NCBI GenBank assembly: GCA_964187785.1
Contig: OZ076409.1
Location: 5,582,001-5,646,000 of the forward strand
Length of the DNA stretch: 64,000 nt
Source of the DNA: Amphiscolops sp. MND2022
Lineage: Eukaryota
Direction of reading: 5' to 3'
This document shows positions 27,886 through 63,819 of this stretch, piece after piece. Both the position numbers and the translations under genes were made by a program. Within the stretch, counting starts at the first letter, position 1, and the number at the start of each line of letters is the position of its first letter. Below the pieces are notes generated by a model, which saw only the letters and a program-made list of their open reading frames with translations, did not search any database and was not told the DNA's origin.

Positions 27886-28175
27886 TCCCACCGGGTTTAT
27901 CGTATCAAGATACGTTTTAATGAAACGGATTAGAGGTTTGTTTAAATCAGTTGAGGTAGTTTTATAGTCTCTAGGAGAGTTGGTTTTAAGGTGTACAGGA
28001 TTGAGAGAAATTGTAAGAACAGAAAATTTTTCTTTTGTGAATTTGTATATTTTTGATATTTTTCATCAAGTTGTAGGGTATCAAGTTGTATTATTTTTTC
28101 CTTACGTGTGAGTTTCGGGCGAATATGTAATTGGTATCTAGAGTCCAGTTTAAAACGAACGGAGTGTGGTTGTGA

Positions 28176-28908
28176 TGTAGCGATTACCTATCGAGTACAC
28201 GATTTTGAAAGTTTCGATGAAAATTTCGTTCAAGGGACTATATCCCCTCTACTGAAAAGTCATATTCCGCTGGACGGCAGCGTGTCTTTATTCAAGTACC
28301 TGCCCACAAAATTGAAGAGAATTTGAGCAAAAGACTCCGGGCAGACCCCAACCGAACGAGAAGACTGCAGAAAAACACGGCCGCTGTCAGAAAAAGACTC
28401 AAATTTCTGTCAAAACGGACTGAACTTTGTTTTAGCCAGTGCTTTCTTCAGCGAAGCGTTACAAGACGCTGTGATTACCGAAAATGAGTCAATTGGCTTG
28501 ACCAAGCATCCGTGCTTGTGTCCCCGGCTAATTGCTGCCTCAAAAGTGCTGATTATGTAGTAATTTTTGTATTTTCTTGTTGTAACAGCTCGTGAGCTAC
28601 TTATTTCGATTTCCTGTGTAACTTCTAAAAAACTTGATTTTCCTTTCCACCACTTGCATTTTTTAAAGGCTATCTAAGCGTTGGTTCCGAAGAAAAAGCG
28701 TAATGCGCGCTACTGTTAGCAATTACAGACTGGATCAGGCCGGCAAGCACTTCTTAAGAAGCGGAATCCTCCTCTGACGGGACATTTCTTACCCGAAGGA
28801 GGCAAAATGGACTCATGGCCATGGGCGCCTGTCCCGGGCAAATACCCATGCCATGTGTTCCTCCTGCTCTTATGGTTACGGCGACAATGGTGAGAGCTTG
28901 TCGTTACA
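28176..28908 (+). repeat. 5' LTR of element D
   Basis: Direct repeat of 46636-47368. Confidence 0.98.
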
Positions 28909-28924
28909 TGGAGAACACATTTTA

Positions 28925-28941
28925 TGGCGACCACAGAGGGA
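28925..28941 (+). promoter_or_regulatory. Primer-binding site, tRNA-Arg-like
   Basis: TGGCGACCACAGAGGGA resembles the complement of the tRNA-Arg 3' end (...UCCCUUCGUGGUCGCCA type) and lies 16 nt from the LTR end. Confidence 0.75.
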
Positions 28942-31285
28942 TCGCTTCGAAGTGCTCCCCTTAATGGTTTTAAAATAGCCGACCCTCTGGTGATTGACGC
29001 CAAGTACGACCCGACTCTGATGAAACGAAGAGAGAAGCAGAGTTTTTCCACGTTTTTACCCTGTGTGTGATTGAAGACTTCAAGCCCGGTGGATAAAGGT
29101 AAATCTTGTAAAAAAGCGCTGTATGTGATTTTCATGCTTTTTCAGTAGTTGACAGGTAACGATTGAAATAGCCTACCCTCTTAACGGGTCACTCATAAAA
29201 TTGGTCTAGCAAGCCGCTGGAAGGCTGCTAGAAACGTTAGCAGGTGTTTTCTAGCCTTTTTCAGCTTTTTATGACCAATGAAGTGAGTGTTGAGAAGAGG
29301 ACGATCCTTGCTCAGACGAATCTTACAATCTGCCGAAACGAGTTATACGACTCACCGATCCCATTTCTCGTACAGGCAACCTAGAGGAATGAAATTTGGT
29401 GGAGACGTATTACAAATGCTGACGTGTCTAATGGTGCAACCCGTTTATCTCTAGCTGTTCTGGGTGATGAGCAAAAAGAACGAGAAGACACGACTCGTCA
29501 GTCCGGGTTGTATAATATTTTTGAGTCAGGTTGAAAAAATTTTTTGGGTTGCTCAAAATTTTGTGTACGACCACTTGCCAATGTTTTTACGAGCCTTCTG
29601 TAACTAGGTGTGTGCTTTTGCACCTGTTTTGTGCGAAAAAAGTGCGTTTTTTCATGTATTTTCGACGAAAAGTGCCAAATTTGGCCATTTTGAGGCGAAA
29701 CACCTACATGAGCGCGAGCGCTCTTGGTGCTAGCCACACCCCTGCAGAAATTAAATAAAAGTAGCTCAGGACTCTAATGAGTTCGCAAAAAACGCGACGA
29801 ACTGCTCAAAGTTGCCCGAAAAGGCACTTAGTATAAATTTTGTGAGGAAAAAACCCCGTTTTTGGAAGACTGAACATTTCTAGCACTTTGTGGGGGAACT
29901 TGTATAGAAGCTTTTAAACACCCCCGTATGGTTGCAATTAGGTTGGGGTACACCTGCCGGTACCCAACAATACCCATTTTGGTAATTATAACCACTACTT
30001 CTTGAAAAAAGTTACGAGAACTGTGATTTTGAGGTTTTTCCAGAGTACTCTTAGAAGAAACCCAATTTGACTATTGACGAACACTTTTACGCTTAGAATA
30101 GCCCCCGGGCTATTATTTTCAGTTTATTCAGTAAATTTAACGATCTACAGTGAAGACCGCATCCCAAAACTCCTTTTCAGTGCTGAGAAAAGTAGAAAAA
30201 TGCACTAAAAAACCTCCATTCTCCTAAAATCCGGACTGTCTCTGAGCTAAGGTCGGGTCATTGATTCTTGGACCTTAGCCAAAAGGTGGTTGCATTTTCA
30301 TAACCACCACTAAAAAGAACGCTAGTGCCGAAAATTTGGTGGACGTAACTTTCACCAAAGTCGAAAAAAGTTCTCTAACGTTTCAACTTTAGGGGACTGT
30401 AAAACTGCCGAAATAATCCAAAACTGACGGACTGTCGGTGCCTCGTGTTTAACGGGCACACCTAATCGAGGGTTTATCCTAGTACTACGAGTAGTGGGGC
30501 AACACGTAGGTCCCATTTTTTTTAGCCCTACCACTTTTTGAGGTGACCCTCTTAGCCAATTTGAAAAAAAAGTAGTCCAAAATTTTTTTTATGAGTGTTG
30601 TCCAAGTAAGGTCGGAACCTCTAATAAGCATCCGCGCTTTCATTTGATGGTTTCACCGGCATTGTACACGCTCATCGACTGTAGCTACAAAGTTTCGTGT
30701 CAATCCAACCGGTACTTGGTGAGAAAATAGAAAAAACGTACCACTCAAAAAGTTGGGCATAGAGGATAATTTTTCAAATTTTTCCTGAGTGATCCGAGTA
30801 CCTTAATTGAAAAACGACGTTGAATTGCCGTTCATTTCTATCATTTGTACCAGATACTACGTTGTTTTGCAAATTTTGAGCCCGCTAGCTTTTTTTCAGT
30901 AAGGCACAATCTTGAAATAAGCATGAAAATTGATGTATCTTGGTGATTAAGGGTACCGAACGTCCGAATCAGCCTGAATCTTGAAATAAGAACCTTAGCT
31001 TAGATTTGATTTTGCTATCGTGTAGTACACCTACCACAAGGTCAGGTGGCCAATTTTCAAGTGTCTCCGACGATTAGACGTTGCGCTCGAGGCATCTTAG
31101 TCATTTTTAAAGAAATCTGAAAAACTCAAAAATTGTCTAAAAACTCGATTGTTTGCGAATTAGCTGTTCCGCAAGCCCCAAACGCACGGTTTCCGGCCCC
31201 ACACCACGGTATAAATGCGCTGTGTAAATTTCACGCCGGTACGACCCCTAGATTGATTTTTGACTTTTTCGAGACGTGTGAAATC

Positions 31286-32125
31286 ATGAAAACTAACAGT
31301 TTGCGTAACCTTTGGAATTCTATAACGAGAACATTAATCAGCACGAACACCCGGCGATGCTCTAATCTTTCAAGAGGGGGGAGGAAGGACACGTCGCGAC
31401 GCGCTGAAGCATCGAAAACACCAGACCCAACGGGATGCGAGACAAATCGCAGTGCAATATCAGACCTGACCTCAGACCCCAGGGAGGAAGATTGGCCAAC
31501 TGATGACAGTTTCGTTATGGAACCCGATTTTTCAGACCCTATGTCAGACGACGCATCGGAGAAGTATCAGGCCAAGCCGGTCGCCAGGACTACCGATGAT
31601 ATCGGAGGTTCAGTTGACGAAACAGGAAGTCAGACCCATACTTCCAAATGGTTGCTGAACTTACCCAGCGCTGTCACACCCTATGGTGTAGATGACACTG
31701 GAGCGTGGCCTAACTCCAACAAGACGAATGAAGATGAAGTAGAAATGAGCTGCCTGAATGCGACGGGGCAATTCAAAGCTCCAAGCACTGCGAGTGAGGG
31801 CACAGCTCATACCACAGAAGTACTCCAACAAATGTCCTATATAGGAGGCATGGATTATGCCAGGGCACGTCTTCAAGAAGCTACGGCTCCCCGAGCATCT
31901 GGGAAGGGTAAGCAAGTACGGCCCCCAGCTTTATTAGCACTAACCAGTACTACAGGACCTCATGGCGATTCACGCTCATCCTCACCCTCATCAAAAGCTG
32001 CATCTGCCCGATCTTCGGCATATCGAGCCGTACATGAAGCAGCGAAAGCGCGCAAAGCTCTATTAGATGCTCAGATAGGCGTGAAGCAAGCTGCTTCACA
32101 ACTGTCTGAGCGCAAGGCAAGGTGA
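31286..32125 (+). CDS. Disordered N-terminal part of element D Gag; in frame with the next ORF across one TGA
   Basis: First ATG at 31286. After TGA at 32123-32125 the same frame continues D-R-E-H-Q-S-I into the ATG at 32147. Confidence 0.8.
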   Translation: MKTNSLRNLWNSITRTLISTNTRRCSNLSRGGRKDTSRRAEASKTPDPTGCETNRSAISDLTSDPREEDWPTDDSFVMEPDFSDPMSDDASEKYQAKPVARTTDDIGGSVDETGSQTHTSKWLLNLPSAVTPYGVDDTGAWPNSNKTNEDEVEMSCLNATGQFKAPSTASEGTAHTTEVLQQMSYIGGMDYARARLQEATAPRASGKGKQVRPPALLALTSTTGPHGDSRSSSPSSKAASARSSAYRAVHEAAKARKALLDAQIGVKQAASQLSERKAR

Positions 32126-32146
32126 GATAGAGAGCACCAGTCAATA

Positions 32147-35100
32147 ATGGAGGAAATAGAAGCCGTGCAGGCTGAATTGCGAACATCAACTGAGCGACAA
32201 GCGCAAGGACATGAAATTCAGGCCGCCCGAATGGATGCTATGGGCTATCGAATGGCCGAAATGAAAGACATGGTGGCCGAAAGAGAGGTGCGCATGGAAG
32301 CTCAAATGCAAGAGGTATGTTCACAGATACAAGCAATGGGCACTATGTTAAAAAATATCCAATCTCGACCCGCACCAGCGAGCAACACTATCAAAGAGTT
32401 GCTGCAAGACACTGACGTATCACTGCCAAAACCCATGAAAAGCGTCTCCCTCAAGCCAAAAGAGAGTGTGACGACTGCAACAAACCCATCTGGCTCTAAA
32501 CAGCACTTGGCGAGGTACGCGCCTTTGCCACAACCTCTGGTCTCAAATGGAGAGGCCGCATCAACCTCGACGAAATTTATCCCGTCTGCGGTATCAACAA
32601 AATATATTCCACGCACGACCAAAGCTCACAAGAAAGAACCAACGTGCGAGGTGATAACTATCGACACTTCAAGCATGGGTATCACCGGCCTGCGAGAGCC
32701 CACACGCACAAACGAGCTGACTGAAGTCACCAGCACCTTCCAAACAGCAAATGCAACTTTGGGAGAATCAGCTGCAGAATTCCAAACCGCGGACGATGGG
32801 TTGCCCCTGGGCAACCCATGCGCCAGCAGCACCCGACGCCGAGAAGTGACAATCCCCGAGAACACCGATGACTCTGTCAACTCAACGCGAGGCAGCAGTA
32901 TCCCGCCACCAGCTATCACTGAAGAAGCGCCTATATCACCGGAGCAACTCAGGTTTACCGAGGCAATATCCAAGGCCATGTCCAAGGAACTGGCGCCGCT
33001 AATTGCTAATCGAGATCAAACTAGGGTCCGCCCTACGGTGTACAAAGGCACTAAAGATGGTACTGTCGATGGATGGCTTCCAGTGATGAAGCGATTTCTA
33101 GAAAGGGTGCATGCAAAATCACCGAAGATCGACAAAGCCTGGGCTATCATCGACCACCTGGAAGGGGAGGCGAGAAATTATATGATCAACAAATCTGAAC
33201 CTGAACGAGACGAGCCCGACAAGGTATTCTCTCTCTTGGCCAGCAGGTTTGGAACCGGTGGAAACCGCATGCACGTCAGGCAAACCTTCATGTCTCGTGT
33301 CCAACAGGAAAAAGAGGATTGGATGCAATTCTTGGACGCATTGGAAGGTCTGCGCACCCAAGGTTTCCCAGACGAGCCTATCACTACACGTCGTTATGAA
33401 ATCCTGCAACGTTTTATAGATGGCGTCAATGACCCGACGCTGCGACAAGAGTTGGCCGTGGTGTACGCTGCGGAGACGTATTTGACTGAGCCACCAACTG
33501 TAGAATCCCTGAGATTCACCACGAGACAATTGCAACGGCATCGCCCAAACACGTCAAAACCTTACGACCCAAGGTATGCAATGAGATCGAGGCCTAATCC
33601 TTTCGTGCCAGGGAAATTGGTTCACCCGGCACCAGGCCTACCACAAAATGTGCTGCCTCCAAACCAAGGACAGCGAGAGGCAAAGCCCCAGATGGCCCCA
33701 CCAGGCCCTGCATCGGTAAAACAGGCTCCTGCACAGCAGCAACCAGCGAGAGTGATTCCCCAAGGAGCATGCTTCAACTGTGGACTATCGGGTCACTTTG
33801 CGAGGGAATGCCCACATCGAGACCTAGCAAAGAAACCCGCGGCTCGCGCTGCACCCGAAGAGCGAGTGAACCTGTGTGAGAACAATGTGGCCTCTGTATG
33901 TTCTGGCCCCGTATTCTGTGTTAAATGTGGCATGACCGAACACTCTGCATCACAATGCCAAAATGTTTCAGTACATGAGGATTTGGCCTACAGCCTCTGG
34001 GCTGAACAGCCATCTGCTTCTCAAACGATGAGTGACAATGAAATGGTACTCATGCTACGCCCTGCTGAAGCCGCTCACGTGGCGACGCCTCTTACCGTCA
34101 CATGTGGCAAAATCCAAATCCAGACGAACCCAGAGCCAACTACTTTTGATCCCCCGGGACGCACTATCATGTCTGCCCGACTACTGTTGGCGGTCGAGAG
34201 AGAAACCCGCCCAGAACTCACCATAGACGCTCCGATAGAAGAGATGACCGCAAACGAGAATTGCCGGCAACTGACTCTGCCCCAACCGGAGGAGTGGCAA
34301 GTGAAAGGTGTCACTTCGACGTATCATGCCTATTCTCCGATTCCAGTCAAAGTCTGCATAGTTGGTGTTGACATGCGTTTTGGCGCCACTATTATTACTG
34401 ATGCGTTTCCTCCTGGAATCTGCTTGGGACCGCAAGAGCTGCGCTGCTATAACATTGACGCTCAAGAACCAACTGGTGAAGCGAGAATCGATGAGCGTTC
34501 GTCGCTCGAGGTTTCATTCGTGGTTCCCGATGCTGCTCCCGTGCCATTACGTGGTCTAATAGACACTGGATCAGGAGTATCCATCCTCACCTTCTCAGCC
34601 TACAACCGAGTCGCCGTGCGCACTGGCACACTCTTACGACCTTATGGTATTGACTTATATGCCGCGAATGGGAAGACGATCAAAACTTTTGGTCTAGCGG
34701 AGAAAGTCAAATTCCAATTGGGAGGCTATGAATTGGAAACTAACTTCGTGGTAGTTGATGACGCTATGGGAGTGGAAGACTTCCTCCTGGGCAGAAACTT
34801 CCTAAGAGCTTATCAGGTCTTGGTAGACCTAACCGCGATGAAGGTCATTGTCCGAGCTCCCTCTGAACCGGTGTGGTACCATGCCCACGCGCAAGTAAGT
34901 AACGAATCGCTCAATTCGTCGGTAGCGATTGCACAGGACGTAGTGTTGCAACCTTTTGAACGCGCGATACTACGCGCTAGATTGCTTTCAGACAACTTAG
35001 AACCTTTCATGTTTCGAACCGTGCTAATCAATTTTCAAACACCTAACCGAATGTTAAAAAACGCCATCTTTTTAGAGGACACCGTGGCGACCGTGGGGGA

Positions 35101-38100
35101 AACTGGTTTCCTTTACGTCAGTTTAGGAAATCTCACCAGCAACGTACAGCGGATCAAAAAGGGCACTCTTTTAGGAACCGCGGTACCTGTGACGATGGTT
35201 CATAAAGCCATCCCCCAAATTGTCCCCGGACAATCAAATGAAACTCTGCAGTCAAATGCAAATTATGTTTGTAAAGTTTACGAACAGATGAACCTTGATT
35301 CTTCTTCTGAATATAGTTCTCCATCTGAATTTGAGTTTTTGTCCTCTACCGAACCGTCAGAACTAGGCTTGTCCGAGCGTGAAATAAAAAAACGAACCGA
35401 TCCGGCGCTAATGGCTCCGATACCGGGCCCGGAAGCACAACTCGACGAAGTGCGCGGTTTGTGGGGCTCGACCGCCAGCGACACGCTTAGTAAACGTTTG
35501 AACGAATTTGATGATTTGTTTATGAAATTCAAAGTCGACATTGGCAAATGTAAAATCGCTAAGCACCCGGTGGAAGTAGAGCCAGGGGCTATACCTCACG
35601 GTGAAGGTGCAAGACGAATGTCGCCTGACAAGGCAGAACGTGCTAACCAAGAAGTCCGTGACTTGCTAGCTTTGGGAATGATACAACCTTCCCTATCCCC
35701 TTGGGCGAGTGGAATTGTTATGGTCAAAAAGAAGAGTGGTGAATTGCGATTCTGTTGTGACTTTCGACCACCTAATGAAGTGACCATCAAAGACGCTTAT
35801 CCCTTGCCACGTATCGATGAGAGTCTATCCCGATTGGGCAAAGCCAAAATCTATACCAGTATTGACTTGGCATGGGCATTCTGGCAAATCCCTGTCCGAA
35901 AAGCCGATCGTCAAAAGACTGCCTTCGCTTGTGAACTTGGGTTATTTGAGTGGCGGCGTATGCCTTTTGGTATGTGTAACGCATCAGCAACATTTCAACG
36001 GGCAATAGCGCGAGCGCTACAAAGAATAGTGAACCGCGAAGGAAGTATGGTTATGGCCTATATCGATGACATTGTGATTGCTACCGAGACCATCGAGGAT
36101 CACATGGATAGACTACGCGAAGTATTGCAATGCCTGCGTGAGGCCGGCTTCAGAATGAGAGTCTCCAAGTGTGACTTTATGAAATCGGAGATCAAATATT
36201 TGGGCCGAGTTGTATCCGCAGATGGTATCAAGCCAGATCCAAAAGCTGTCGCCAAGCTGAAAGATTGGGATATCCCGCGAACCAAAACTGAATTGCAAAG
36301 TTTCTTGGGTTTTGCCAACTACTATCGGGATTTTATCCCATGGCATGCAAAGCTAGTTGCCCCTTTACATGCGATGACGGGCGCAGGCTCTCCATTTTTA
36401 TGGGGGGAGGAGCAGCAGCGAGCCTTTAACAGCATCAAAGTGGCACTAATGGAAGCCACTGCTCTGGCGCAACCCGACACTGAAGGCGAATTTGTTCTTG
36501 ACACCGATGCTAGTGGTGTAGCTATATCAGGTATTCTTCACCAATGGCAAGGACCACCTGAGAGTCACAAATTGCGACCGATTGTATTCGGAAGCAAAAA
36601 GTTAACCTCTACGCAAGCAAAGTATGGAGCCCCAAAACTGGAAATGTACGCTGCATACTATTTCATCTTGAAAAACCACAGCTATCTCTGTCCACGGAAA
36701 TTCACACTGAGAGTCGACAATCAGGCCCTATCCTGGCTAAAGACATATTCGATGGATCAGGCGATTATTGGTCGATGGATTATGGCTCTTGAAAAATATC
36801 ACTTCGGTATTGAGCACCGACCCAGAACGCAACATCGAAATGCTGATGGTCTTAGCAAACGAACAAATGACTATAAAAAACACGAAAAGCAATTAAAGGG
36901 TTTACCCGCAATTGCAGACCAATGGGATTTCCTATCACTAGAGGAATACAACAAACTCCCGCTAGCCCCATGGTTTGATGTCCACGGATGTGTGATACCA
37001 AATCACCCAGAATTGCCTGCACACTTGCAGAGGTTGGCTAGCCAAAGTTCACCCGAAACCACAGTTGCCGCTCCCACGCGAAGGAGCGGACAAAGCAAAC
37101 GAAGTGCGATCATGCGCGACGAAGCCATGAGAGCACCCCTACCTAGATTGCCAAAACCAGAACTGGCACTGCCTGCCGAACTTTATCCAGAGTATCCTGA
37201 GGATTGGTTGGAACTGACCGAGGAATATCAACGAGACTATTTGCTCCCCACGCATGCTGCTAACGTACCATCAAGAACCACTTATCCACTGACGGAAAAG
37301 CAAGCAACTAGCACTGCACCAGAGCACGTAAAACAAGCCGCGTTTGTGGTAAACAGCATATCGATGGAATTGCATGAACATGCTGACACAGTCCATGGGT
37401 TGAAAGATCTACTACTGGCACAAAACCGTGACGTCCACGTCTTGGCTATCAAGAAATTGGTAATGCAAGAGTCAATAGATCATGACATCTTTCCGGAAAA
37501 TGTACGTGCCTTTGCCAAAAACTACCACAAACAGAAGAAGAACCTTCTGCTGGTAAACGCGAACGGGGTTTTGTGTGTAAAGTACTCCAAAAGTCAAAAA
37601 GCTTTGCATGAACGCCCCTGCATGATAGTGATGCCCCAATTGTATCAGCATGAGATATTGTTCAAGGCCCACGACGCGATGGGACATCAGGGCATCGCGA
37701 AAGTCTTGGCCAGAATTCAAGAGCGCCACACTTGGCCAGGCATCCGCCGCACCATTGGACAATACGTCAGCCAATGTATCACTTGTCAACAAGTACGTGA
37801 CAAGCCTGGTGATGTACGCTTTCACTTGAAAAATATCCAAAGCGACTATTTTAACGAGCTAGTCCAATATGACCACATGAAAATTTGTCCCTCTGACGAT
37901 GGTAACACAGGGATCTTGGTTATTATTGATCATTTCTCTAAGCTCGCAGAAGCTGTGCCGTGCAACCACGATGAGTATGATGCAGCGACCACTTCAAAAT
38001 TGTTGTTGCAGAAATGGTTTGCCCGCCATGGAACGCCGACGAGAATGCAGTCAGACAATGCTCCCAACTTCACCGCGGCAGTATCTGCTGAGTTTATGAA

Positions 38101-39640
38101 AGCCGCCCAAGTGACCAAAGTAACCTCAACTGCTGGCCACCCCAAGACTCAAGGGTTGGTAGAGCGACAAAACCGAACGTTACTCACCCTACTGCGTGTA
38201 TTCTGCTCTAGACGAATGCGTGATTGGGACCAGTATTTAGATGAAGTCATGGGTGCATACAACTCCACACGTCATGCCACTACTGGGTTCTCCCCGTATA
38301 TGCTGACCAGAGGCATGGAAAAAGCTATACCCCTGACTTTCTTGTATCCCGAATTTGCAACTCAGTCATTCGAATCACACGAAGCCTATGTGGAACATGT
38401 GCTGGCTCGACAGCAAGAGATTCATGACTTAGTCCGTCGTAACACGCATCAAGCCCAGCAGCGACAAAAGTTGAAATACGACCGAGCAATTCGTGCTAAA
38501 GCCTATGAAGTGGGCGAACCTGTTTGGGTATTCTGCCGATACATTCCTCAAAAAGGATCTCCTAAATTGATGAGAGCCTGGCATGGTCCTCACAAAGTAG
38601 CACGAGTGCTACAAGAGGGACGCGTCTACATACTTGACACTGGTCAAAAAGTACATTTCGAACGATTGAAACCGCACCATGGTGGTCCAACAGAATGGGC
38701 AGCTGTTCCTGCGCATAACGGCGAGGTTGCTATCATCATGGACCCTCACCCAGAACAATCCCACGAGGAAGTGAGAGACGATGCTTCGCAACCTTCTTAT
38801 CGTGCGGAGGAACCAATTTCAGAAGCCAGTAATGCCTCTTTGCCTTCTCGACAAAGACATTGGATGGACACACGGTTGCGCACACGCATGCGCGCTGGTG
38901 GCAGCCGCCTACATTATCAACAATTTGACTATTCTTCGACTGAGTCTGACGACGAACGTTCTGATGTACTCCTGTCGAGTGTTCAGGCTAATCCCGATGA
39001 GAGTGCTATCTTGTCATCACATGTGGATGAACCTGCGCCTATTCCCGAAATACCAATATCACCACTGCCTGCTATGGAGGCTCTATTCTCAGAGAATGAA
39101 GCAGTGCCCGACGTCTTGGATATCGCCCCAAATCCTACTATCCACGCACCCACCAAAAGTGCCGGCACCTCTCTGACCGGTACATCCGCCCCATTATTGA
39201 CAAATCCATCTCTTACGGATATGTTGAGTAACTTTCCCATTTGGCCCCTAATCGATGACAATGTTCTCAATCCCACCTTAGACGACAACGGTGCTGAAGC
39301 ACCAATGACCAATGACGAAAAGGGATTTATTCCCCCTACGACAGTTCCCACCAACAACAACGCAGCTACTACCACGAAACTCTCCAATGCTCCTAGAGGG
39401 CATAGACCGCGAGGACGTCCGCCAGGCAGAGCGAGGCCGCGAGCCTCGCTGCCACGTGGCCACCAACAGAGAGGTGCTATTAGAGGCGCTCGCATAAGAG
39501 GCCGTCCCAGAGGAAGACCTCCTCGTACAACACACGCCAGACCTAACACCTCTACCCGTGTTCGTCGCACTCCATCTGTGGACACTGACTCTTCTGCCCC
39601 TAGCGCGGCGGTTACCTCAGATCAAGCAGCACCGCCATAA
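32147..39640 (+). CDS. Gag-Pol polyprotein of element D (capsid, two CCHC knuckles, protease, dUTPase-like region, RT, RNase H, integrase)
   Basis: CFNCGLSGHFAREC and CVKCGMTEHSASQC; LIDTGS (34562); PWASGIVMV, MPFG, YIDD (36059-36070); DTDAS; HDAMGH..CITC; YDH / SDNA / VERQN (DDE); WHGPHKV. Confidence 0.98.
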   Translation: MEEIEAVQAELRTSTERQAQGHEIQAARMDAMGYRMAEMKDMVAEREVRMEAQMQEVCSQIQAMGTMLKNIQSRPAPASNTIKELLQDTDVSLPKPMKSVSLKPKESVTTATNPSGSKQHLARYAPLPQPLVSNGEAASTSTKFIPSAVSTKYIPRTTKAHKKEPTCEVITIDTSSMGITGLREPTRTNELTEVTSTFQTANATLGESAAEFQTADDGLPLGNPCASSTRRREVTIPENTDDSVNSTRGSSIPPPAITEEAPISPEQLRFTEAISKAMSKELAPLIANRDQTRVRPTVYKGTKDGTVDGWLPVMKRFLERVHAKSPKIDKAWAIIDHLEGEARNYMINKSEPERDEPDKVFSLLASRFGTGGNRMHVRQTFMSRVQQEKEDWMQFLDALEGLRTQGFPDEPITTRRYEILQRFIDGVNDPTLRQELAVVYAAETYLTEPPTVESLRFTTRQLQRHRPNTSKPYDPRYAMRSRPNPFVPGKLVHPAPGLPQNVLPPNQGQREAKPQMAPPGPASVKQAPAQQQPARVIPQGACFNCGLSGHFARECPHRDLAKKPAARAAPEERVNLCENNVASVCSGPVFCVKCGMTEHSASQCQNVSVHEDLAYSLWAEQPSASQTMSDNEMVLMLRPAEAAHVATPLTVTCGKIQIQTNPEPTTFDPPGRTIMSARLLLAVERETRPELTIDAPIEEMTANENCRQLTLPQPEEWQVKGVTSTYHAYSPIPVKVCIVGVDMRFGATIITDAFPPGICLGPQELRCYNIDAQEPTGEARIDERSSLEVSFVVPDAAPVPLRGLIDTGSGVSILTFSAYNRVAVRTGTLLRPYGIDLYAANGKTIKTFGLAEKVKFQLGGYELETNFVVVDDAMGVEDFLLGRNFLRAYQVLVDLTAMKVIVRAPSEPVWYHAHAQVSNESLNSSVAIAQDVVLQPFERAILRARLLSDNLEPFMFRTVLINFQTPNRMLKNAIFLEDTVATVGETGFLYVSLGNLTSNVQRIKKGTLLGTAVPVTMVHKAIPQIVPGQSNETLQSNANYVCKVYEQMNLDSSSEYSSPSEFEFLSSTEPSELGLSEREIKKRTDPALMAPIPGPEAQLDEVRGLWGSTASDTLSKRLNEFDDLFMKFKVDIGKCKIAKHPVEVEPGAIPHGEGARRMSPDKAERANQEVRDLLALGMIQPSLSPWASGIVMVKKKSGELRFCCDFRPPNEVTIKDAYPLPRIDESLSRLGKAKIYTSIDLAWAFWQIPVRKADRQKTAFACELGLFEWRRMPFGMCNASATFQRAIARALQRIVNREGSMVMAYIDDIVIATETIEDHMDRLREVLQCLREAGFRMRVSKCDFMKSEIKYLGRVVSADGIKPDPKAVAKLKDWDIPRTKTELQSFLGFANYYRDFIPWHAKLVAPLHAMTGAGSPFLWGEEQQRAFNSIKVALMEATALAQPDTEGEFVLDTDASGVAISGILHQWQGPPESHKLRPIVFGSKKLTSTQAKYGAPKLEMYAAYYFILKNHSYLCPRKFTLRVDNQALSWLKTYSMDQAIIGRWIMALEKYHFGIEHRPRTQHRNADGLSKRTNDYKKHEKQLKGLPAIADQWDFLSLEEYNKLPLAPWFDVHGCVIPNHPELPAHLQRLASQSSPETTVAAPTRRSGQSKRSAIMRDEAMRAPLPRLPKPELALPAELYPEYPEDWLELTEEYQRDYLLPTHAANVPSRTTYPLTEKQATSTAPEHVKQAAFVVNSISMELHEHADTVHGLKDLLLAQNRDVHVLAIKKLVMQESIDHDIFPENVRAFAKNYHKQKKNLLLVNANGVLCVKYSKSQKALHERPCMIVMPQLYQHEILFKAHDAMGHQGIAKVLARIQERHTWPGIRRTIGQYVSQCITCQQVRDKPGDVRFHLKNIQSDYFNELVQYDHMKICPSDDGNTGILVIIDHFSKLAEAVPCNHDEYDAATTSKLLLQKWFARHGTPTRMQSDNAPNFTAAVSAEFMKAAQVTKVTSTAGHPKTQGLVERQNRTLLTLLRVFCSRRMRDWDQYLDEVMGAYNSTRHATTGFSPYMLTRGMEKAIPLTFLYPEFATQSFESHEAYVEHVLARQQEIHDLVRRNTHQAQQRQKLKYDRAIRAKAYEVGEPVWVFCRYIPQKGSPKLMRAWHGPHKVARVLQEGRVYILDTGQKVHFERLKPHHGGPTEWAAVPAHNGEVAIIMDPHPEQSHEEVRDDASQPSYRAEEPISEASNASLPSRQRHWMDTRLRTRMRAGGSRLHYQQFDYSSTESDDERSDVLLSSVQANPDESAILSSHVDEPAPIPEIPISPLPAMEALFSENEAVPDVLDIAPNPTIHAPTKSAGTSLTGTSAPLLTNPSLTDMLSNFPIWPLIDDNVLNPTLDDNGAEAPMTNDEKGFIPPTTVPTNNNAATTTKLSNAPRGHRPRGRPPGRARPRASLPRGHQQRGAIRGARIRGRPRGRPPRTTHARPNTSTRVRRTPSVDTDSSAPSAAVTSDQAAPP

Positions 39641-41047
39641 TCAACCAACGCTCGCTATGGCCTGCGACGCAATCGTATTCCCAGATATCGTTGCGGAACA
39701 TGTGGCCTACGAGACTGCGAATGTAACTACATGGTCCATGCGGGCTTCCCAATTAAACCCCAGGGAGTCCTGCTAGCACGTAAACAGGAGAAAACGCTTC
39801 CAAGCAGCACGATTGACCGTTTGGTAATTCGAGCTGAGAAGACTTATACTGGGCTACAACGCAGCGACACTCCATATCCTGTGAACTATATCCTATCCAA
39901 AATGAAAGATTCTACGATAGCAAAGGCCCCGTGCCCAAGATTCAAGGAGTGGACCTATGATCTTATTTGTTTGGATTTCACATTACCTATCACTGTTCCC
40001 CCCTTGCCTACAAATTTTGCTTTTGGTCCTTTCAACTATGAACGAGAACCTATCCAAATGGTACGCTGTATCCCTGCTGACCTTTTGTATGACAAGTACA
40101 ACGTCACCGCAAAACCAGGAGACGTTTATCAGTCTGCAACCAACTGGTGGCTACTAATTACGGCCAAACAAGTGTCCGACCTGGTTCATCCCAATAACTT
40201 GAGCACCTGTCTGGAGAGTTTGCGGACAATGGCCTCTCCTGATAGAATCACTTGTTTCCACACCATAGACCTGTATCGTGGTAAAATTAAGTTTGAATGG
40301 TGGCTGGAACTTATCATAGCAGTCTTATCGAGCTTTTCACGAATCCGATTCCTGGACGATTGGACGCACTCATTTTCTAGTCCTGTATCACTCCAATCAG
40401 CCCTACACGCACTGGATACATGGTCCAGGGCTAACATTGATAACCAATCGTTGCCGCGATCTGTGTGGCAAGACTTGGGCGCCATTAAAGGCCTCCTTCC
40501 GAACACATGTGACGATGCTCTCTCCAATGACCCCGGACGAGAGTTAATATACCATGGAGCCGTGAGACCTCAATTGGTTGACTATGTGCAGTATGCCAAT
40601 ACGGACTTCCTGCAAACTCCCCATCATATTGTTTTATGTTGTCCCGCAAACCTTGAGACTAATTCTGCCGCTCTTCGTTACGTCATTCGTGAGCATGGTG
40701 CAGATGCAATCTTTCAACTTCTACCGGAGGTTGGCAATATTGTGACGCTACCCACATCTTTGATAGACGGCCATCCTCAGACTATCCACCTTTTAATCAC
40801 ACGAGCTACACCTCGCTGCCCTATGCTCGCTGATATTCTCTTGGGATGTCTTGATCATTTGAAAACGTTACTCGAGCGCTTAGAGGCGATAGAAGTACAC
40901 TTTGCCATCATTGATCCTGAGCGCCCAATACGTAATCTTTTCGACTTTTATACCTGTTTGATGGACGTATTCGCTGACACGCCCCTGACCGTCGTTCTTC
41001 ACGATCGCGTTTACGTATCTATCGCAAGCGTCGCTAGCTTTCCGTAG
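39641..41047 (+). CDS. In-frame continuation of Pol: RYGLR motif, Cys cluster and two degenerate macrodomain-like repeats (TARG1/Poa1p type)
   Basis: The frame stays open from the TAA at 39638-39640 (STNARYGLRRNRIPRYRCGTCGLRDCECNY) into the ORF at 39731. Two repeats show the pattern C.padl...pG.v....llIT......L..CL..L...idxxr...vf. Confidence 0.75.
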   Translation, partial: STNARYGLRRNRIPRYRCGTCGLRDCECNYMVHAGFPIKPQGVLLARKQEKTLPSSTIDRLVIRAEKTYTGLQRSDTPYPVNYILSKMKDSTIAKAPCPRFKEWTYDLICLDFTLPITVPPLPTNFAFGPFNYEREPIQMVRCIPADLLYDKYNVTAKPGDVYQSATNWWLLITAKQVSDLVHPNNLSTCLESLRTMASPDRITCFHTIDLYRGKIKFEWWLELIIAVLSSFSRIRFLDDWTHSFSSPVSLQSALHALDTWSRANIDNQSLPRSVWQDLGAIKGLLPNTCDDALSNDPGRELIYHGAVRPQLVDYVQYANTDFLQTPHHIVLCCPANLETNSAALRYVIREHGADAIFQLLPEVGNIVTLPTSLIDGHPQTIHLLITRATPRCPMLADILLGCLDHLKTLLERLEAIEVHFAIIDPERPIRNLFDFYTCLMDVFADTPLTVVLHDRVYVSIASVASFP

Positions 41048-41269
41048 AACTTTTTGTTTTTCCTTTCGCTCTTTTTTTTTCTTTTGTCCGCTCGATTAAG
41101 TTTAGTGAATCGACACGGAGTTTACTTGAAACAAATACGTTACCTTTTCTTTTAATGTTAATTTGTGATATCCTATTACTTCCCCTGGTATTACCCTTAA
41201 AGTGACCTATGGTGTTACCCTACTATCAAGTGTGCTACAATCGACCTGCACTCTTTCAGAGTTTCCGTC

Positions 41270-44200
41270 ATGAACCAAAGTGACGATGAAAGCAACTACG
41301 TCCCTCCAAGATCTTCAGATGACTCTCCTGCCTTGGGGCACCGCGTTTACGACACTGCGCGTGTCCAGCGTACCCCACAAATTGCTTTCATTCGAGACAG
41401 ACTCGACCAAGGTCTGTCGCCAGCTACAGTAGCCGGGGTGGCGGCGATCATAGCCCAGATGGAGTCACAAGTGCAAGCCCCTATGCTGACGATATCTATC
41501 ACTTCAGGCTTTCCTGGGTTCCAGCGATCTATGACGTTCCAAGATGGAGTGTGGTACGGCCATGATCTCACACATCACTTTACGGATGATCGTGCAGCGA
41601 TCTCATACAGTCCTGCGAATGGCGGAGTCCATCAGACCAGATCTCTACAGATCCCTTCTTGCCCGCCTCCACCTCCACCGCCACCTCCTGTATCAATGCC
41701 ACAAACAGTAGTGCGTGCAAGCACTTCTGCTCCTGCAGTACCTAACTTGTCCAATCAACCAATGGCAGAACAAGCAGTTATCTCAGCACTGCAAGCAGTA
41801 GCTATCAACCCTAATTACGCTGATTTCATGCGATCCATGGAGCAGTGTTGGCCTGAACTACGCCAAATTGCTCTGCCTACTGTTACTATTCGCAACGAAA
41901 ACGCCACTTTGAACCAAACAAGTTAAGATGCTATCACTATTCCTCACGTCAATCCTCAGTCTGAACAGCCAGGGCACTCCCGCACCGTGACTGTAGAGCG
42001 CAGTCGTTCGCCTTCCCGCTCTTCTCAAAAGGGGGGAGGAGAGAGCCGCCCTGCCTCCAGAAAACGCAATGACCGTTCTCCAACAAGAATGAGTGCTCAA
42101 CAACCACTAACTGCTCGTGACAGCCCCTCGAGCAAGCCACCACCCGACAAAAAGATCTCCAACGAGAAGGCCACAACCTCCAAGACGCCAAACCAAACAA
42201 AATCAAAAGTGTCGGAAGCATCCGTGCTTCCCTCACCCCAGCCACAACCAAACGCAACAGGCGAACAACAAGGACTGCCGCAGCCACCACCCACGCAGTC
42301 TACAACACGCGAGTCGCTGGCTCAACGAGCGGTTCCTAAGACTTCTACATCAAGACAGCCACAAACGGAGCAAACTGTGGTTTATCAAGGCACCCCTGAA
42401 CCTCAGCGAACTGTCAAGGACATAATGGGTGATTACCCAGGATTGAAGGTAACCAACAGTGGTCCAACTGGAACCCCACTCCGCAAACAGGCAATTCAAC
42501 ACCCAACTAAGAGGACCTTTACAAAGCAACCGACGTACCTGAGTCCAATGCAAAACACGAAGGGCAAGCTGATCACCAAGGACTCCCGACGTATCTGGGA
42601 ATCGGCAGTTATTGTATCACCCGAATGGCTGTTTGAAAAGAACATGTGTCCTCCGAATGACGAAGAGCATGCGAAATTGAAGAAGGCGAAAGTATCTGTA
42701 TTCATGAATCGTCCAATTCGCCCCGACCACACCCCTACTAATGAGCCGCCATGGCTAGGGAAGGCAATGAATATTCTGCCAAACGTAGAAGACAACTACT
42801 TGGACGCCCTCAACATTGACCTTCGTGGGCAATTCGCTGCCGATACTTCCTCAACGCTGGAGAGACCTTCGAGATCAACCCGCGGTACGCCCGTGACCTC
42901 GAAGCCCAGCTACCAATGCCAAAAGAAAGGTTGCAGCGTGCGCGCTTCGCCTTACTTGTAGACTCGACCTTCCTCAAAAATATCCCTATTGACAATGTGC
43001 TGTCAGACGTGATGGTTTTCACTCTACCGCTGTCACGTATCCCCGAGATGGCTGAAGTGTTGGTCACCATGTTTGACCCCGAGATGACGGGGACCTTCAA
43101 AGAGCCACCCCCACGCAGAGTGATCATCAGTAACGTTTTCGATCACATGGCCTGTGAAGGACTAATGGCCCAGATCGCGAACGTTGAAATCATAAATCCA
43201 ACTCCAGCACAGCGAGCAACAGTACGCAACGCAGTACTGAATGTGGCCCGAGCCATGGAAAAAGCCCAAAATATCCTAAAGAATAAACTCAACGTGCCAG
43301 TCTTGTTTGTAACACCCCCAGGTTTCTGCCAGTGGCATCCCGCCTTGCAGAGATTTATCTATATGGTAACAGAAATTTGCAAATGTAGAGAAATAGACTT
43401 TGCGATCTGCGCGCCCAATATGCGGATCAGCTCCGACGACTTGCGTCCCTCCTGGCTTTCCTACATGGGGTACGTTGCCTCAGTGTCTAAAGTGCTACAG
43501 TCAGTGGAAAAGACAGGGAACGCGCAGCTGACAATCGACGATGCCATCTATTTTGATCACGGCACTCGTATGGGCTTGTTAGTATTCAGCAACAACGGAG
43601 AAAGGCGAGTCCCAGAACCTAGCACGGCTGAATGTCAGGCAATCCGCCTGAATAACTGGATGGAGCGCGCGCGCTCCTCCGGTGGAAAGACTTGCATTAA
43701 AACTGATCTTGCGGAAGTCACCGCCATAATGAGCAAAATCCCCAGCGACCGAGAAGTGGAACGAGCCATCCCGCGAGTTCAATTTGCCCAGGACCTCACT
43801 ATTGACCAACTATCAGTGGGAATGAGGTATATCGCTGCAAAATTGACGAGCGAGACTCAGGCTGAAATCCAAGCCTTCAGCAGCACCTACGACGCTTGGT
43901 ACCAGCGGCTGCAAACTACCACCGTAGCAGACATTGCAAAAGAACTTGGGATGTCAACCGACCAATTTGCCATCTGTTTGGGATTGGGTTGGAGTCCCGA
44001 TGTTATTCGAGTTGAGTTCGGCTTGGACGAACACTGGTTGATCGGAATCAGCAAGATTATCGGCACCATGCAAGTAAACGAACTCTTTGCACTGATACTC
44101 ACCTTCGGGCAGAAACGCTTCGTAGCTGGCCCAATGATGATATTGACCGACCTGGTTACTGAGTGTAATCTGGAATGGCTATTTTCGTATTTAGTGATTG

Positions 44201-45625
44201 CGCGAGGCAATATCTCAGGCCTCACCGCCTTAGCCAAGCTGCTACAACGAAAAGACGCTCAGGATTATCCCGCTCACCTGGAGCGCATGACAAGTTCGTT
44301 ATATCACTGGATATACTGCAGTCTGGTCTTTGCCTCGGGACTTTTCGTGGGCGTAGATAAGCACCAACCATTATATGACGGACGTCAGCTGGTGACCGAG
44401 GTAGCTGGATTTCTGACACCTAACCAGCTGGCAGATTTCACTTTGGCTGAAGTCGAAGACCTTGTACCGGTGTTAGCACCCGTGCTAACTCCGATATTTG
44501 GCCCAACCGGGATACTTCGCTATCCCACCAAGCCTCTGCGACTCGCCTGGGAAACACCAACAGTCTCCATCCTGACTTTTCTGAAGAATGTAAAACCGTA
44601 CAACTATCAGCAGATGCTTGAACGCGGGTTGTTCCATGTATACCACCATAAAGAACGAAACGCAGCAGGACGAAAACCTGGCCGGCATTCTCAAAGCCCG
44701 GACAAAGAAGGCGTGCCCTTTACCTCGCGAATACGGCCCGGTGAATTGGTACAATTCGCCCCTAGATCACCATGGAATCCCACAGCGATTCAATTGGAGT
44801 TTCGCACACCTCAGGAAGTACGTGACCGAATGCGTACAAGCCATGGGCGGTCACACAAACCAGGGGTATAATTTTCAGATGATCAAGCTTCCAGCCAGGT
44901 ACTGGCGAGGACCCATCGGCTATGCCCGGGCTAAGCCAATCAGCATGGTTGAGAAAGGCTTTAATGAGCAGTACGCCTATCGCGATCACTACAAACTAGG
45001 CGTGTGGATGTCAAGGACCCTGGAGGAACGCCAAGGGCGCCTAAAAGGCTTGATCATCCCTCCACAGACAATGCCTGTTTGGAATCCAGTGGCGAGGGTC
45101 ACTATGGGAAGCGACATGCCAGCGGAGACCTGCTACCATGTCATGGAACTGCTGAGTGATCCCCTCGGACCCGAATGGGAAGCCTCCAGGCAAATTATAG
45201 AACATGAAAACAGGGACAACTGGTCCAGAGCCTGCGGGCTCTGGGGCCGACCTGATCTACGCCCGAAACTCAGTGCCAAGCAGAAACGACCCATTGCCAC
45301 CCGCAATAGACCGCTAGATCTACCACACCTGTTTAATGCCAGTAGATTGGATGTGCAGATCCCAACCTCCACGTCGACCACAAGTTCTGCCAATGTTAGC
45401 GGCTCAGCCAATGCAGCGCAAGAACATTCGCCAGAAGTCTCAACTCCCGTAGCTGCGGAAAATGGCCCTAGTGGCTCAAACACGACTCCCAGGACCCATG
45501 AAACTGCCAGCGCCGAACCAAGGCCAGTCCTGCGAGAAGGAAATGTGCGAAGAGGATCCCTGTCCGAACCACAACCGAAAGCCGACGTCTCCCCCAGAGC
45601 GCGTCAATTCTCCGCCACCCAGTAA
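41270..45625 (+). pseudogene. Accessory ORF of element D (about 1450 aa reconstructed; one in-frame stop and two frameshifts) with an SGNH-hydrolase-like domain
   Basis: 41270-41926 and 41987-42961 share a frame across one TAA; frameshifts near 42820-42845 and about 44630 join 42916-44871 and 44618-45625. SGNH-like blocks: FALLVDS, VIISNVFDH, VLFVTPP, SDDLRPSWLSY. Confidence 0.75.
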
Positions 45626-46621
45626 AACAAACCTAACATTATTGCCATTCTGTTTTAAACTTCAATAGTCCTGTGCTAAATGAACCTTTGCAAAACCTCA
45701 TGGTTTCAACCACTGTTGTTGCTAAACTTTGATTTTGGAAGTGCCAATTGGTCATGGGTAAAAACCTCCAAGTGGAGATGAAGCCCCCGGGCTTCATCCT
45801 CCTCATTATTCCGTTTTGGGACCGGCAACCCAACCATAAAACTACGCCTTTGCCTTGCCTTAGTTAAATGCATTATTCAATTTGCAATTTGTGTTTGCAG
45901 TTAGTGCTTTTTCAAGCTACCTTATGCTACCTTATGGATGCGCTGTGCGCACTCCGTGCTCTGAATTTTCGGTGCTATTACACCCTTTTAGTTACTAGTT
46001 ATTGTTTACACTGTTGCTATTGTCGAAAAAGACAAAAGGAAAAAAATGAAGGAAAAGGAAACAAAAGGAGAGAGATGAGAAATGGATAGAATAAAAAGAT
46101 TGATGGACCTAGACTATTGTTTTTTCTTTGAGTTACCTGATAGGATTGAGAGTAAGTCTCGCAAAAGAAATTTTATATTGACTGTACTTATTGGTTGATT
46201 TTATGGCAACTGCTTATCAAAAGAACTTTTATCAAACGCCAAGCAGTGCGAAGCTCCCGAGCTTCGGAAAATAAATTTTGAACTGTCATGGTCGTTGACC
46301 TTAAAACAAGTTTTAACACTAACGGCAAAAAAAAAATTTTGTATGAAAGGCCGAAAAGAAATTTTAACGCCTGAACTGCTCACGACAGGCTACAAAAAGT
46401 AATAACCTTGCCGTATAAGATTTGTATACGAAGTTGTATTAATTTGATCAAAATGCAGCAACGCTGGGTCAAAAACACTTCCACGAGGCCAACTTGACGA
46501 CGTCCCAATGAACTGCCCAGCGCTAGTTGATGTGCACTCTACCTCCTCAGTGGGACATAGATGACCCTGGGTAAAGACTCGATGATGCCAACCCACACTT
46601 GACGGGGACGTCAAGACTAGA

Positions 46622-46635
46622 CCCCGGGGAGTGTA
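46622..46635 (+). promoter_or_regulatory. PPT-like tract of element D
   Basis: CCCCGGGGAGTGTA lies directly before the 3' LTR. Confidence 0.7.
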
Positions 46636-47368
46636 TGTAGCGATTACCTATCGAGTACACGATTTCGAAAGTTTCGATGAAACTTTCGTTCAAGGGACTA
46701 TATCCCCTCTACTGAAAAGTCATATTCCGCTGGACGGCAGCGTGTCTTTATTCAAGTACCTGCCCACAAAATTGAAGAGAATTTGAGCAAAAGACTCCGG
46801 TCAGACCCCAACCGAACGAGAAGACTGCAGAAAAACACGGCCGCTGTCAGAAAAAGACTCAAATTTCTGTCAAAACGGACTGAACTTTGTTTTAGCCAGT
46901 GCTTTCTTCAGCGAAGCGTTACAAGACGCTGTGATTACCGAAATTGAGTCAATTGGCTTGACCAAGCATCCGTGCTTGTGTCCCCGGCTAATTGCTGCCT
47001 CAAAAGTGCTAATTATGTAGTAATTTTCGTATTTTCTTGTTGTAACAGCTCGTGAGCTACTTATTTCGATTTCCTGTGTAACTTCTAAAAAACTTGATTT
47101 TCCTTTCCACCACTTGCATTTTTCAAAGGCTATCTAAGCGTTGGTTCCGAAGAAAAAGCGTAATGCGCGCTACTGTTAGCAATTACAGACTGGATCAGGC
47201 CGGCGAGCACTTCTTAAGAAGCGGAATCCTCCTCTGACGGGACATTTCTTACCCGAAGGAGGCAAAATGGACTCATGGCCATGGGCGCCTGTCCCGGGCA
47301 AATACCCATGCCATGTGTTCCTCCTGCTCTTATGGTTACGGCGACAATGGTGAGAGCTTGTCGTTACA
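46636..47368 (+). repeat. 3' LTR of element D
   Basis: Direct repeat of 28176-28908. Confidence 0.98.
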
Positions 47369-48789
47369 TGATATTCATATGGAGTTGGGGTGAAGTTTGA
47401 AAAGGTATAATGATTTGAACAATTATAGTTTTTACATCATCAATTTTTTATTGTTTGTTTTCCGTGGGGGTTTTGAAAAGTTTGTTTAAGGAGGCATTGA
47501 TTGACATGTGAAGACGTGGTGAGAAAAAGTGATGAGTAGCAGAAAAAGAGCAAAAATGAAAAAGAACGGCCCTGTTGACAAACATGAAGATTCATGAAAG
47601 ACGAAGAATTCTTAGTTATCGTGTCAACGTAAGCGTTTTCCTTACGCGCGTTTTTTCGTGAAAACACAATTAATGAGTTTGAGAAGCTTCTGCGGCCAGA
47701 AGGCGGCCTAAACGAAATCAAAAAATTCAAAAAACAAGTCAAGTATCAGTCAATATGTGTTCACAATTCGATCACATGAAGCGGGTAAACGAGCGAAAAA
47801 GAATTGAGTCAGTCAGGAGTTGTCATTAAAAATATCATTTGATTAAAAATTAAACGCAGTGGTAAGTAATTTTTATTATGTGAACTAGGAGAAGTAAAAA
47901 AGATTTGGGAAAACTGTTAAAACCGAAGTTATTGAAATGTAAGGTAAAGATTTTTGTGAGAATCAGGTGAAAAGTGGAGTTGCGGTTTTTAAAAAATGTT
48001 GGGAAATGGAGTCAAAATTTTAAAAATTAGCAAACGCACCACAAGAACAGTTGAAATAGACTATACCGATTATGCTAAGAGAGAAAACATATCAAATATT
48101 TTGTAGAATTGAAATTAGAGGTGTAGAAAGTTGAAATTTAGAGCATCGAAAAACAAATTTTTACTGATTATGTAAACAAAAACGTTACTACAATATTTTA
48201 GATTGTACGGAAAGAGAGCGTAGTCACGAAGAGTAAAAAGGGAACATTCGGGGTGTGAAAATGGAGTGATTGTTAAATTATTTTGAGTTAAATCAAAGAA
48301 GCGAGGACATATTTTTATGAAAAATATAGGGGAATTGTGCATAATTTTACTTAATCAACCTCTTTAAGGGATGTAATCATAGGAGGAAATCCGTTGAGCG
48401 AGTCACGAAATAGGGGGGCGTAAGAGATTCGATGCTAACCGGTATTAGCGGCGGATTTGACGCGGGGAAGGGGAAATGAATGGGAATTACAATCATTGTG
48501 GGTTAGATAAGAACATTTTTGTGGGAACCTTTACGAAAAGGTTCTGGGAAATATTGAAAATTGAAATCTATCGAAAGCTGGAGGAGGGAGAAATTAAATG
48601 TGAAAAATTGGAGGAGAGTGAAGGTTGAAGATGAATTAGGAAGAAGCAGGAATTGTAGGAGTTTAAAGGTCCTATAGTTTTCTTAAGAAAGTCATTAGTT
48701 TGTGAAGTGGACAGAGTGAGGGATTGCATATCCTTGTTATGGAGATGAAGGAGATGTTGATGGTTGCGGTAGGTGTCAAAAAATGGTTA

Positions 48790-58900: not shown

Positions 58901-58907
58901 AGAGTGA

Positions 58908-59107
58908 NNNNNNNNNNNNNNNNNNNNNNNNNNNNNNNNNNNNNNNNNNNNNNNNNNNNNNNNNNNNNNNNNNNNNNNNNNNNNNNNNNNNNNNNNNNNN
59001 NNNNNNNNNNNNNNNNNNNNNNNNNNNNNNNNNNNNNNNNNNNNNNNNNNNNNNNNNNNNNNNNNNNNNNNNNNNNNNNNNNNNNNNNNNNNNNNNNNNN
59101 NNNNNNN
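58908..59107. other. Assembly gap (200 N)
   Basis: Run of N. Confidence 1.
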
Positions 59108-63767: not shown

Positions 63768-63819
63768 AAAAGAAGAAAAAAAATGTTTCGAGTAGAAAAA
63801 GGAAGGAAAGAAAAAGAGT

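Follow-up and report, generated by a model that had tools for sequence, protein, structure and literature searches.

Some gypsy elements are known to bear chromatin readers at the C-terminal end of their integrase, and chromatin tethering has been documented for MAGGY (10.1101/2021.11.30.470311); the accessible text of the same work, a survey of chromo and PHD fusions to retrotransposons, contains no macro fusion, and its supplements may list some. Macro-domain open reading frames (ORFs) are borne by teleost epsilon-like endogenous retroviruses (Basta et al. 2009, as cited in PMC4977317), the accessible part of a report on rotifer long terminal repeat (LTR) elements describes GDSL third ORFs and does not mention macro domains (PMC5408684), and in the tandem array of PARP14 the macro domains 2 and 3 keep ADP-ribose binding (PMC4695847). 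Here, we describe the end of the single Gag-Pol frame of a 19.2-kb LTR retrotransposon from Amphiscolops sp. MND2022 (GCA_964187785.1), which spans 28176-47368 of a stretch of 64,000 nucleotides of contig OZ076409.1 (positions 5,582,001 to 5,646,000, forward strand), referred to as the window. Downstream of the integrase this frame carries AT-hook cores, a cysteine cluster and two macro-like domains, M1 and M2. We consider this segment likeliest to be a non-catalytic chromatin tether for the integrase, a reading to which we give a probability of roughly 45%.

The macro segments are fused to the integrase frame, and the fusion is conserved family-wide. The family is abundant and young, with an identity of 97-100% in the 40 listed matches to 39450-40050. 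An earlier note, made from the letters of the window alone, had described the Pol frame as staying open past a single TAA into the macro segments and had proposed to look up this codon in other copies. Among the 30 best-matching copies fetched from the 40 listed, the stop at 39638 turned out to be private to the window copy, with a sense codon and thus read-through in 29/29 others, and the stop at 41045 is present in 30/30. As the macro part does not have an independent start behind a conserved stop, the fusion to the integrase stands. M2 lies inside an open frame of at least 3,200 amino acids (aa) in 32 of the 150 listed copies (hand count), and therefore Gag, Pol and the tail form one frame. 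Also in subfamilies represented by public proteins (22 long matches, 38-53% tail identity), one chain joins the integrase or its tail with the macro region. The motif positions recorded before were all recovered, i.e. RPRGRPP at 39404, RGRPRGRPP at 39497, the stop at 39638-39640, RYGLRRNR at 39653 and CGTCGLRDCEC at 39692, followed within the macro segments by VRCIPAD at 40061, WWLLITAK at 40145, VLCCPAN at 40631, IHLLITR at 40784, LMDVFADTPLTVV at 40958-40996 and the stop at 41045-41047.

M1 (40007-40360) and M2 (40580-41008) are both predicted to have a TARG1-type macro fold. The AlphaFold model of the tail (468 aa) reached a predicted local distance difference test score (pLDDT) of 74 and a predicted template modelling score of 0.54, and Foldseek matched M2 in this model to TARG1 at E 8.5e-9. 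VIA runs, which re-scored Foldseek's own 1,000 best chains, aligned M2 (model range 314-456) with human TARG1 (4j5r) at Z 17.6 and a root-mean-square deviation of 1.9 Å over 136 residues. M1 folded alone (pLDDT 80) matched TARG1 at Z 13.2 and 2.5 Å over 114 residues, with other macro domains coming next. The two tandem TARG1-like folds, which had been proposed by eye, are thus supported by predicted models, in which human TARG1 (OARD1/C6orf130; PDB 4j5r, 4j5s, 2l8r) is the best structural match for both segments and the alpha/beta/alpha macro fold is nearest to TARG1, DarG and Poa1p. In profile searches, TARG1 chains were the top 5 of 6 PDB matches of the whole tail (E 0.13-0.16) and the top 5 of 8 of M2 (E 0.0018); the M1 profile gave no sequence match in the PDB, single-sequence Pfam and PDB searches of the tail returned no macro family, and 0/52 members matched Pfam Macro (PF01661). 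An Atlas search with M2 returned mainly viral clusters and, at rank 18, one cluster with Macro in 14% of its members, and the search with M1 gave no usable match. M1 and M2 are related to each other, as their trimmed domain profiles align at an hhalign probability of 85.5 (E 5.7e-6), compared with 0.3-8.9 in 19 of 20 reversed or block-shuffled controls and 48 in the remaining one. The homology of M2 to TARG1 is direct, at the profile E-value given above, and also transitive through the sister-lineage protein P0403 (see below); that of M1 runs through M2 only, with a probability of 0.07 against the intact domains alone.

Upstream of the macro domains, the AT-hook cores reported earlier hold up as RGRP motifs in a basic context (20 basic vs 3 acidic residues). 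The motif is found at most 120 aa upstream of the Cys cluster in 21/21 long relatives carrying this cluster, which 1 of 22 lacked, and elsewhere in the same relatives it occurs once in 23,397 aa; the Pfam AT_hook match is weak and below the cut-off (6/52 members, best E 0.2). The Cys cluster of the earlier note is likewise confirmed, with its four cysteines retained across subfamilies, and is not folded in the model (pLDDT <50 for tail residues 1-51). Judging from what is known of such motifs, the AT-hooks would bind DNA and the cluster would bind zinc. In a chromatin tether, DNA would be held by the basic AT-hook segment without much regard to sequence, and a protein partner would be bound by the acidic M2 together with the shortened M1; our leading guess for this partner is a basic chromatin protein, e.g. 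a histone tail. The integrase core, on its long acidic linker, would still be able to reach DNA in the vicinity. What the element would gain is being retained on chromatin, and not a choice of sequence.

The distance of this module from the integrase is considerable, with about 270 mostly acidic residues between the GPY/F motif and the first AT-hook and about 470 between GPY/F and M1. In chromoviruses the spacer after GPY/F amounts to some tens of residues. The earlier placement of the module in the position of a chromodomain is therefore right in that it is C-terminal after the integrase, but only loosely so given these 270-470 residues, and Pfam searches of the window element and of 52 members returned no chromo family after GPY/F. 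A long unstructured linker that separates integrase and module would also suit a scaffold of the particle or of a ribonucleoprotein, in which the module, either cut off by the protease or acting before cleavage, would bind to itself, to Gag, to the element RNA or to the second-ORF protein. In line with this, the ADP-ribose-blind TARG1-G123E variant binds RNA via surface patches (PMC5928194). Further points in its favour are a conserved hydrophobic strand at the C-terminus, for which the monomer model shows disorder, and a large second ORF, whose co-inheritance is seen in two subfamilies. However, M2 is net acidic (9 basic vs 18 acidic residues) and M1 neutral, which does not resemble a surface for RNA binding, double-stranded DNA is the expected target of AT-hook cores, and no cleavage site was identified, so we regard a scaffold as rather unlikely, even though it is the rival that survives best.

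The ligand pocket was compared with that of TARG1 in 35 non-redundant M2 rows (of 110) and 42 M1 rows (of 145), using TARG1 numbering counted from the PDB alignment, which agrees with Gly43, Ile44 and Gly123 in the accessible text of PMC5928194. Both glycine loops are lost, as had been noticed before: in M2, GAGIA is replaced by NSAAL and GCGLD by DPERP, and in M1 loop 1 is missing. The GCGLD-loop positions of M2 are occupied by Asp in 33/35 rows (Gly121), Pro in 26/35, Glu in 29/35 (Gly123; Gly in 1/35) and Arg in 31/35, the Gly43 position by Ala in 34/35 and the Lys84 position by Arg in 33/35. M1 lacks about 24 residues comprising loop 1 and its helix, its second loop reads Asp-x-Tyr/Phe-Arg-Gly with Tyr (29/42) or Phe (8/42) at the Gly123 position, and its Lys84 position is Ala or Ser and never basic. 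An Asp-x-x-Arg loop is conserved in M1, M2 and the sister lineages. Lys84 and Asp125 are the catalytic residues of TARG1; the Asp125 position is never Asp in the 35 M2 rows, and an equivalent is lacking in 42/42 M1 rows. Taken together, these substitutions suggest that the ADP-ribose pockets are likely blocked, and ADP-ribose binding would then have been lost in M1 as well as in M2. The exchange that prevails in M2 has been made in TARG1 itself, where G123E no longer binds ADP-ribose and is inactive, but is more stable than the wild type and retains RNA binding (PMC5928194). The non-catalytic role put forward in the earlier note remains the likeliest reading.

Parts of the pocket are nevertheless retained in M2, namely Asp at the Asp20 position (29/35) and at the Asp37 position (28/35; Asn in the window M2), Gly66 (33/35) and Thr83 (29/35), and Ser-Ala in loop 1 is nearly invariant. 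These positions, the Arg at Lys84 and the Asp-x-x-Arg loop shared by both domains and the sister lineages would fit a remodelled reader or decoy, in which M2 binds adenine nucleotides, poly(ADP-ribose) or ADP-ribosylated chromatin without hydrolysis and thereby guides the element to damage sites or shields its cDNA from PARP signalling. We consider this unlikely, because the places of two glycines whose backbone contacts the diphosphate are taken by acidic residues, Glu at Gly123 is by itself enough to abolish binding in TARG1 (PMC5928194), and M1 is without loop 1.

Sister lineages allowed us to follow the origin of the domains. A search with the reverse transcriptase (RT), for which the best 120 of 442 matches were used, returned lineages of 52-58% identity. 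In two of them, P0403 and P0405, the C-terminus is one intact TARG1-type domain (P0403 vs TARG1 E 3e-26; P0403 passes the Pfam Macro cut-off, P0405 does not), and the M2 profile matches these domains at E 1e-9 and 3e-12, respectively. P0386 and P0431 have a single degenerate macro domain with the loop DPNRG and no RGRP core. P0389 has the loop DWDRD and a candidate second domain upstream, collinear over 214 columns; its probability of 0.36 is within the shuffled controls. In the branch of the intact P0403 and P0405, P0429 and P0430 have a macro domain that degenerated a second time, independently and without an Asp loop.

In a tree of 29 hand-picked RT-RNase H rows, with long-branch warnings for P0389, P0429 and the outgroups, 21 rows group at 100/100, of which 11 show a complete macro domain, 1 stops within the tail and 9 stop or are rearranged upstream of such a domain. 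Within the tree, an Asp-loop clade of 18 rows including all Asp-loop forms is supported at 96/92, with P0403, P0405 and P0429 outside. The best identity in this genome is 31% for the P0386 lineage and about 40% for the P0403 lineage; as no close copy of either is present here, degenerate domains are found in more than one host assembly. In this genome, intact TARG1-type domains also occur in other gypsy families, behind the protease (L087-L096) or between RNase H and integrase (L086). In the sister-lineage record P0382, a truncated integrase is followed in frame by an SGNH esterase that looks intact (Pfam PF13472). Capture of TARG1-type domains by retroelements is thus not itself new, since both sister lineages and other families here hold intact copies. 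The ancestor would have carried one intact TARG1-type hydrolase after its integrase; in one clade, the GCGLD loop would have changed to Asp-x-x-Arg and the domain would have been duplicated, the fold being retained by selection for a new surface.

This descent from intact domains at the same position, together with the intact ones in other families here, is what could be said for a hydrolase activity of M1 and M2, by which they would remove host ADP-ribose marks from proteins, RNA or cDNA of the element as an anti-PARP device; an anti-PARP device had also been considered in the earlier note, though as a non-catalytic one. The Asp125 equivalent is, however, absent in every M2 and M1 row, the Lys84 equivalent is Arg in M2 and Ala or Ser in M1, and both glycine loops are lost. 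With the pocket predicted to be blocked, such a role is very unlikely for M1 and M2.

M1 and M2 are under strong purifying selection. For the two subfamily pairs of this genome with measurable synonymous divergence (dS), the ratio of nonsynonymous to synonymous divergence (dN/dS) was 0.037 and 0.064 in M1 and 0.113 and 0.105 in M2; in the remaining three of five pairs synonymous sites were saturated, at a proportion of nonsynonymous differences (pN) of 0.15-0.20. Among 30 close copies, nonsynonymous (N) and synonymous (S) changes that are shared amounted to 1 N/9 S in M2, 6 N/5 S in M1 and 3 N/1 S in the AT-hook segment (no signal), and private changes look neutral (M2 46 N/14 S). A decaying relic without function, as the lack of a Pfam match and the broken window copy might suggest, is ruled out by these selection data (dN/dS 0.04-0.11, with saturated or high dS) and by the preservation of frame and motifs across subfamilies at about 40% identity.

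Regarding integration, the target duplication is 3 bp long in 9/9 pairs (7 full elements, 2 solo LTRs), compared with an all-against-all match rate of 24/224. In a second subfamily it is 3 bp in 4/6 copies, the rest being one mismatch and one damaged end, and an unrelated family gave 5-bp duplications with the same method. LTR elements usually duplicate 4-6 bp, which is typical rather than strictly defining, and the 3-bp duplications fall short of this length usual for Ty3/gypsy. They point to an unusual integrase geometry in this clade. A literature search, with most subscription papers and Repbase outside its coverage, yielded no description of 3-bp duplications in LTR elements. The sites show a weak palindromic preference (A at -3 in 10/16, T at +3 in 11/14), and the GC content of 100-bp flanks is 0.357 vs 0.400 in 20 fixed background stretches (p 0.003).

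Several observations weigh against a chromatin tether. The targeting of AT-rich DNA that is seen against the background is gone when flanks of two unrelated LTR families serve as the reference (0.356 vs 0.343, p 0.22; 0.352 vs 0.358, p 0.91, n=10), the first of which bears a GRGRP core and the second none, with 10/60 of its flanks passing the uniqueness filter. Repeat content of the flanks does not differ from the background (p 0.65). The integration targeting suggested in the earlier note thus finds no support in base composition or repeat content of 30 flanks, and no family-specific targeting is supported by the insertion flanks. Moreover, a module at such a distance from GPY/F may be cleaved off the integrase by the protease, and the macro domain is independent of the AT-hooks, given that P0386 and P0431 are without RGRP. 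The residue equivalences in the pocket come from sequence alignment and not from superposed coordinates, though the alignment is ungapped through the pocket motifs in M2, and the adenine-side Asp and the near-invariant Arg at Lys84 kept in M2 would be unneeded by a purely structural domain. The wider proposal, that a clade of giant gypsy elements converted a captured ADP-ribose eraser into a tandem pseudo-enzyme that reads chromatin and forms a new class of integrase tether, with Gly123-to-Glu, the exchange that inactivates TARG1 in the laboratory, fixed by nature and combined with AT-hooks, a zinc cluster and a 3-bp stagger, is put forward as a tentative possibility.

The coordinates of the element are listed in Table 1. 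Its domain order according to Pfam, Gag-protease-RT-RNase H-integrase, is that of Ty3/gypsy, and its two LTRs of 733 bp each run from TGT to ACA, with the paired TG...CA ends, and differ from each other at 8 positions. The primer-binding site of LTR elements usually lies 0-3 nt after the 5' LTR; here, a primer-site-like TGG motif begins 16 nt past the LTR (28909-28942), no tRNA was matched to it, and a comparable spacer is present in the second subfamily. A clear polypurine tract ahead of the 3' LTR was not seen in the window element. About 280 additional residues lie between RNase H and the H2C2 finger of the integrase (37000-37600), and the beta-rich N-domain in front of M1 (39803-40006) had been missed in the earlier note. 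The second ORF gave no match in Pfam and PDB sequence searches; its counterpart in the second subfamily is 1,403 aa long with a core of 33% identity. A degenerate SGNH-like fold in it (42928-43500) was suspected by eye only, and the ORF matched neither the SGNH region of P0382 nor the PDB.

Table 1 Features of the LTR retrotransposon in the window.
Feature	Positions	Strand	Remarks
5' LTR, 733 bp	28176..28908	+	preceded by target duplication TGA (28173-28175)
Primer-binding-site-like motif, starts TGG	28925..28942	+	16 nt inside of the 5' LTR end
Gag-Pol frame, single, about 3,300 aa in relatives	31121..41047	+	broken in the window copy by stops at 32123 and 39638
Gag CCHC zinc knuckle	33767..33817	+	Pfam PF00098 E 6.6e-6
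Aspartic protease	34544..34807	+	PF13975 E 1.1e-5, below curated cut-off
Reverse transcriptase and RNase H	35723..36799	+	PF00078 E 1.9e-34, PF17919, PF17917
Integrase: H2C2 finger, catalytic core, GPY/F-like motif GPHKV at 38585	37634..38599	+	PF17921, PF00665
Acidic low-complexity linker, 13 K/R and 36 D/E in 235 aa	38681..39385	+	composition
Basic segment with AT-hook cores (RGRP)	39404..39523	+	motif conservation
Stop codon private to the window copy	39638..39640	+	sense codon in 29/29 other copies
C-x2-C-x4-C-x-C cluster, conserved, putative zinc site	39692..39724	+	alignment; unfolded in model
N-domain, small, conserved, beta-rich, precedes M1	39803..40006	+	alignment and model
M1, shortened, predicted TARG1-type macro fold	40007..40360	+	without GAGIA loop, following helix, Lys84 or Asp125 equivalent
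Helical linker M1-M2	40361..40579	+	model
M2, full-length, predicted TARG1-type macro fold, net acidic	40580..41008	+	GAGIA read as NSAAL, GCGLD read as DPERP
Conserved hydrophobic C-terminal extension, then family-wide stop	41009..41047	+	low pLDDT; common to degenerate sister lineages
Second ORF, four pieces in the window copy	41201..45625	+	about 1,479 aa in many copies
3' LTR	46636..47368	+	followed by target duplication TGA (47369-47371)

The window copy sits between two similar repeats of another LTR element on the minus strand. This older, decayed element occupies 27549-27714 and 47369-64000 and contains fragments of Pol and, near 48800-53450, one more ORF region; the element studied here appears to have inserted into it. 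A separate broken gypsy element lies at 6682-12768 on the minus strand, with 209-bp LTRs, a 5-bp duplication and a GRGRP core near 7537 past its integrase region. In addition, a pair of 72-bp inverted repeats and a short tandem repeat array are found at 13616-13835 and 23439-23552.

The literature search, of the coverage stated above, found no degenerate or tandem macro domains described in a gypsy integrase. Macro capture by retroelements is known, and what we did not find described is the tandem pseudo-enzyme together with AT-hooks and a 3-bp stagger. Within one retrotransposon clade and on one tree, intact, single degenerate and tandem degenerate macro domains can be lined up as a series that leads from an active captured enzyme to a conserved pseudo-enzyme. 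This would imply that the TARG1 fold has a strongly selected function that does not depend on ADP-ribose. Such a function is testable on domains that are small and soluble, with a natural active domain as control, and a true tether would extend the few targeting domains known for integrases by a new module.

Compared with the known systems, TARG1 is a free, single and active hydrolase, whereas here two copies reside in a polyprotein with their glycine loops replaced. In chromoviruses, too, the integrase frame ends in an accessory module, but one of another fold and after a much shorter spacer, and no targeting signal was found for the family studied here. The teleost retroviruses share the capture of a macro domain by an LTR retroelement, described there as additional ORFs. 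The macro domains 1-2 of PARP14 (PDB 4d86/3vfq) are arranged in tandem like M1-M2 and align over both domains of the model; however, the reader macro domains of PARP14 and of the ALC1 type keep ADP-ribose binding, which M1 and M2 are predicted to have lost. Closest are P0403 and P0405, which belong to the same RT clade and carry their domain in the same C-terminal place after a long acidic linker, but differ from the window element in having a single domain with GCGMD and Thr-Lys intact and no RGRP core.

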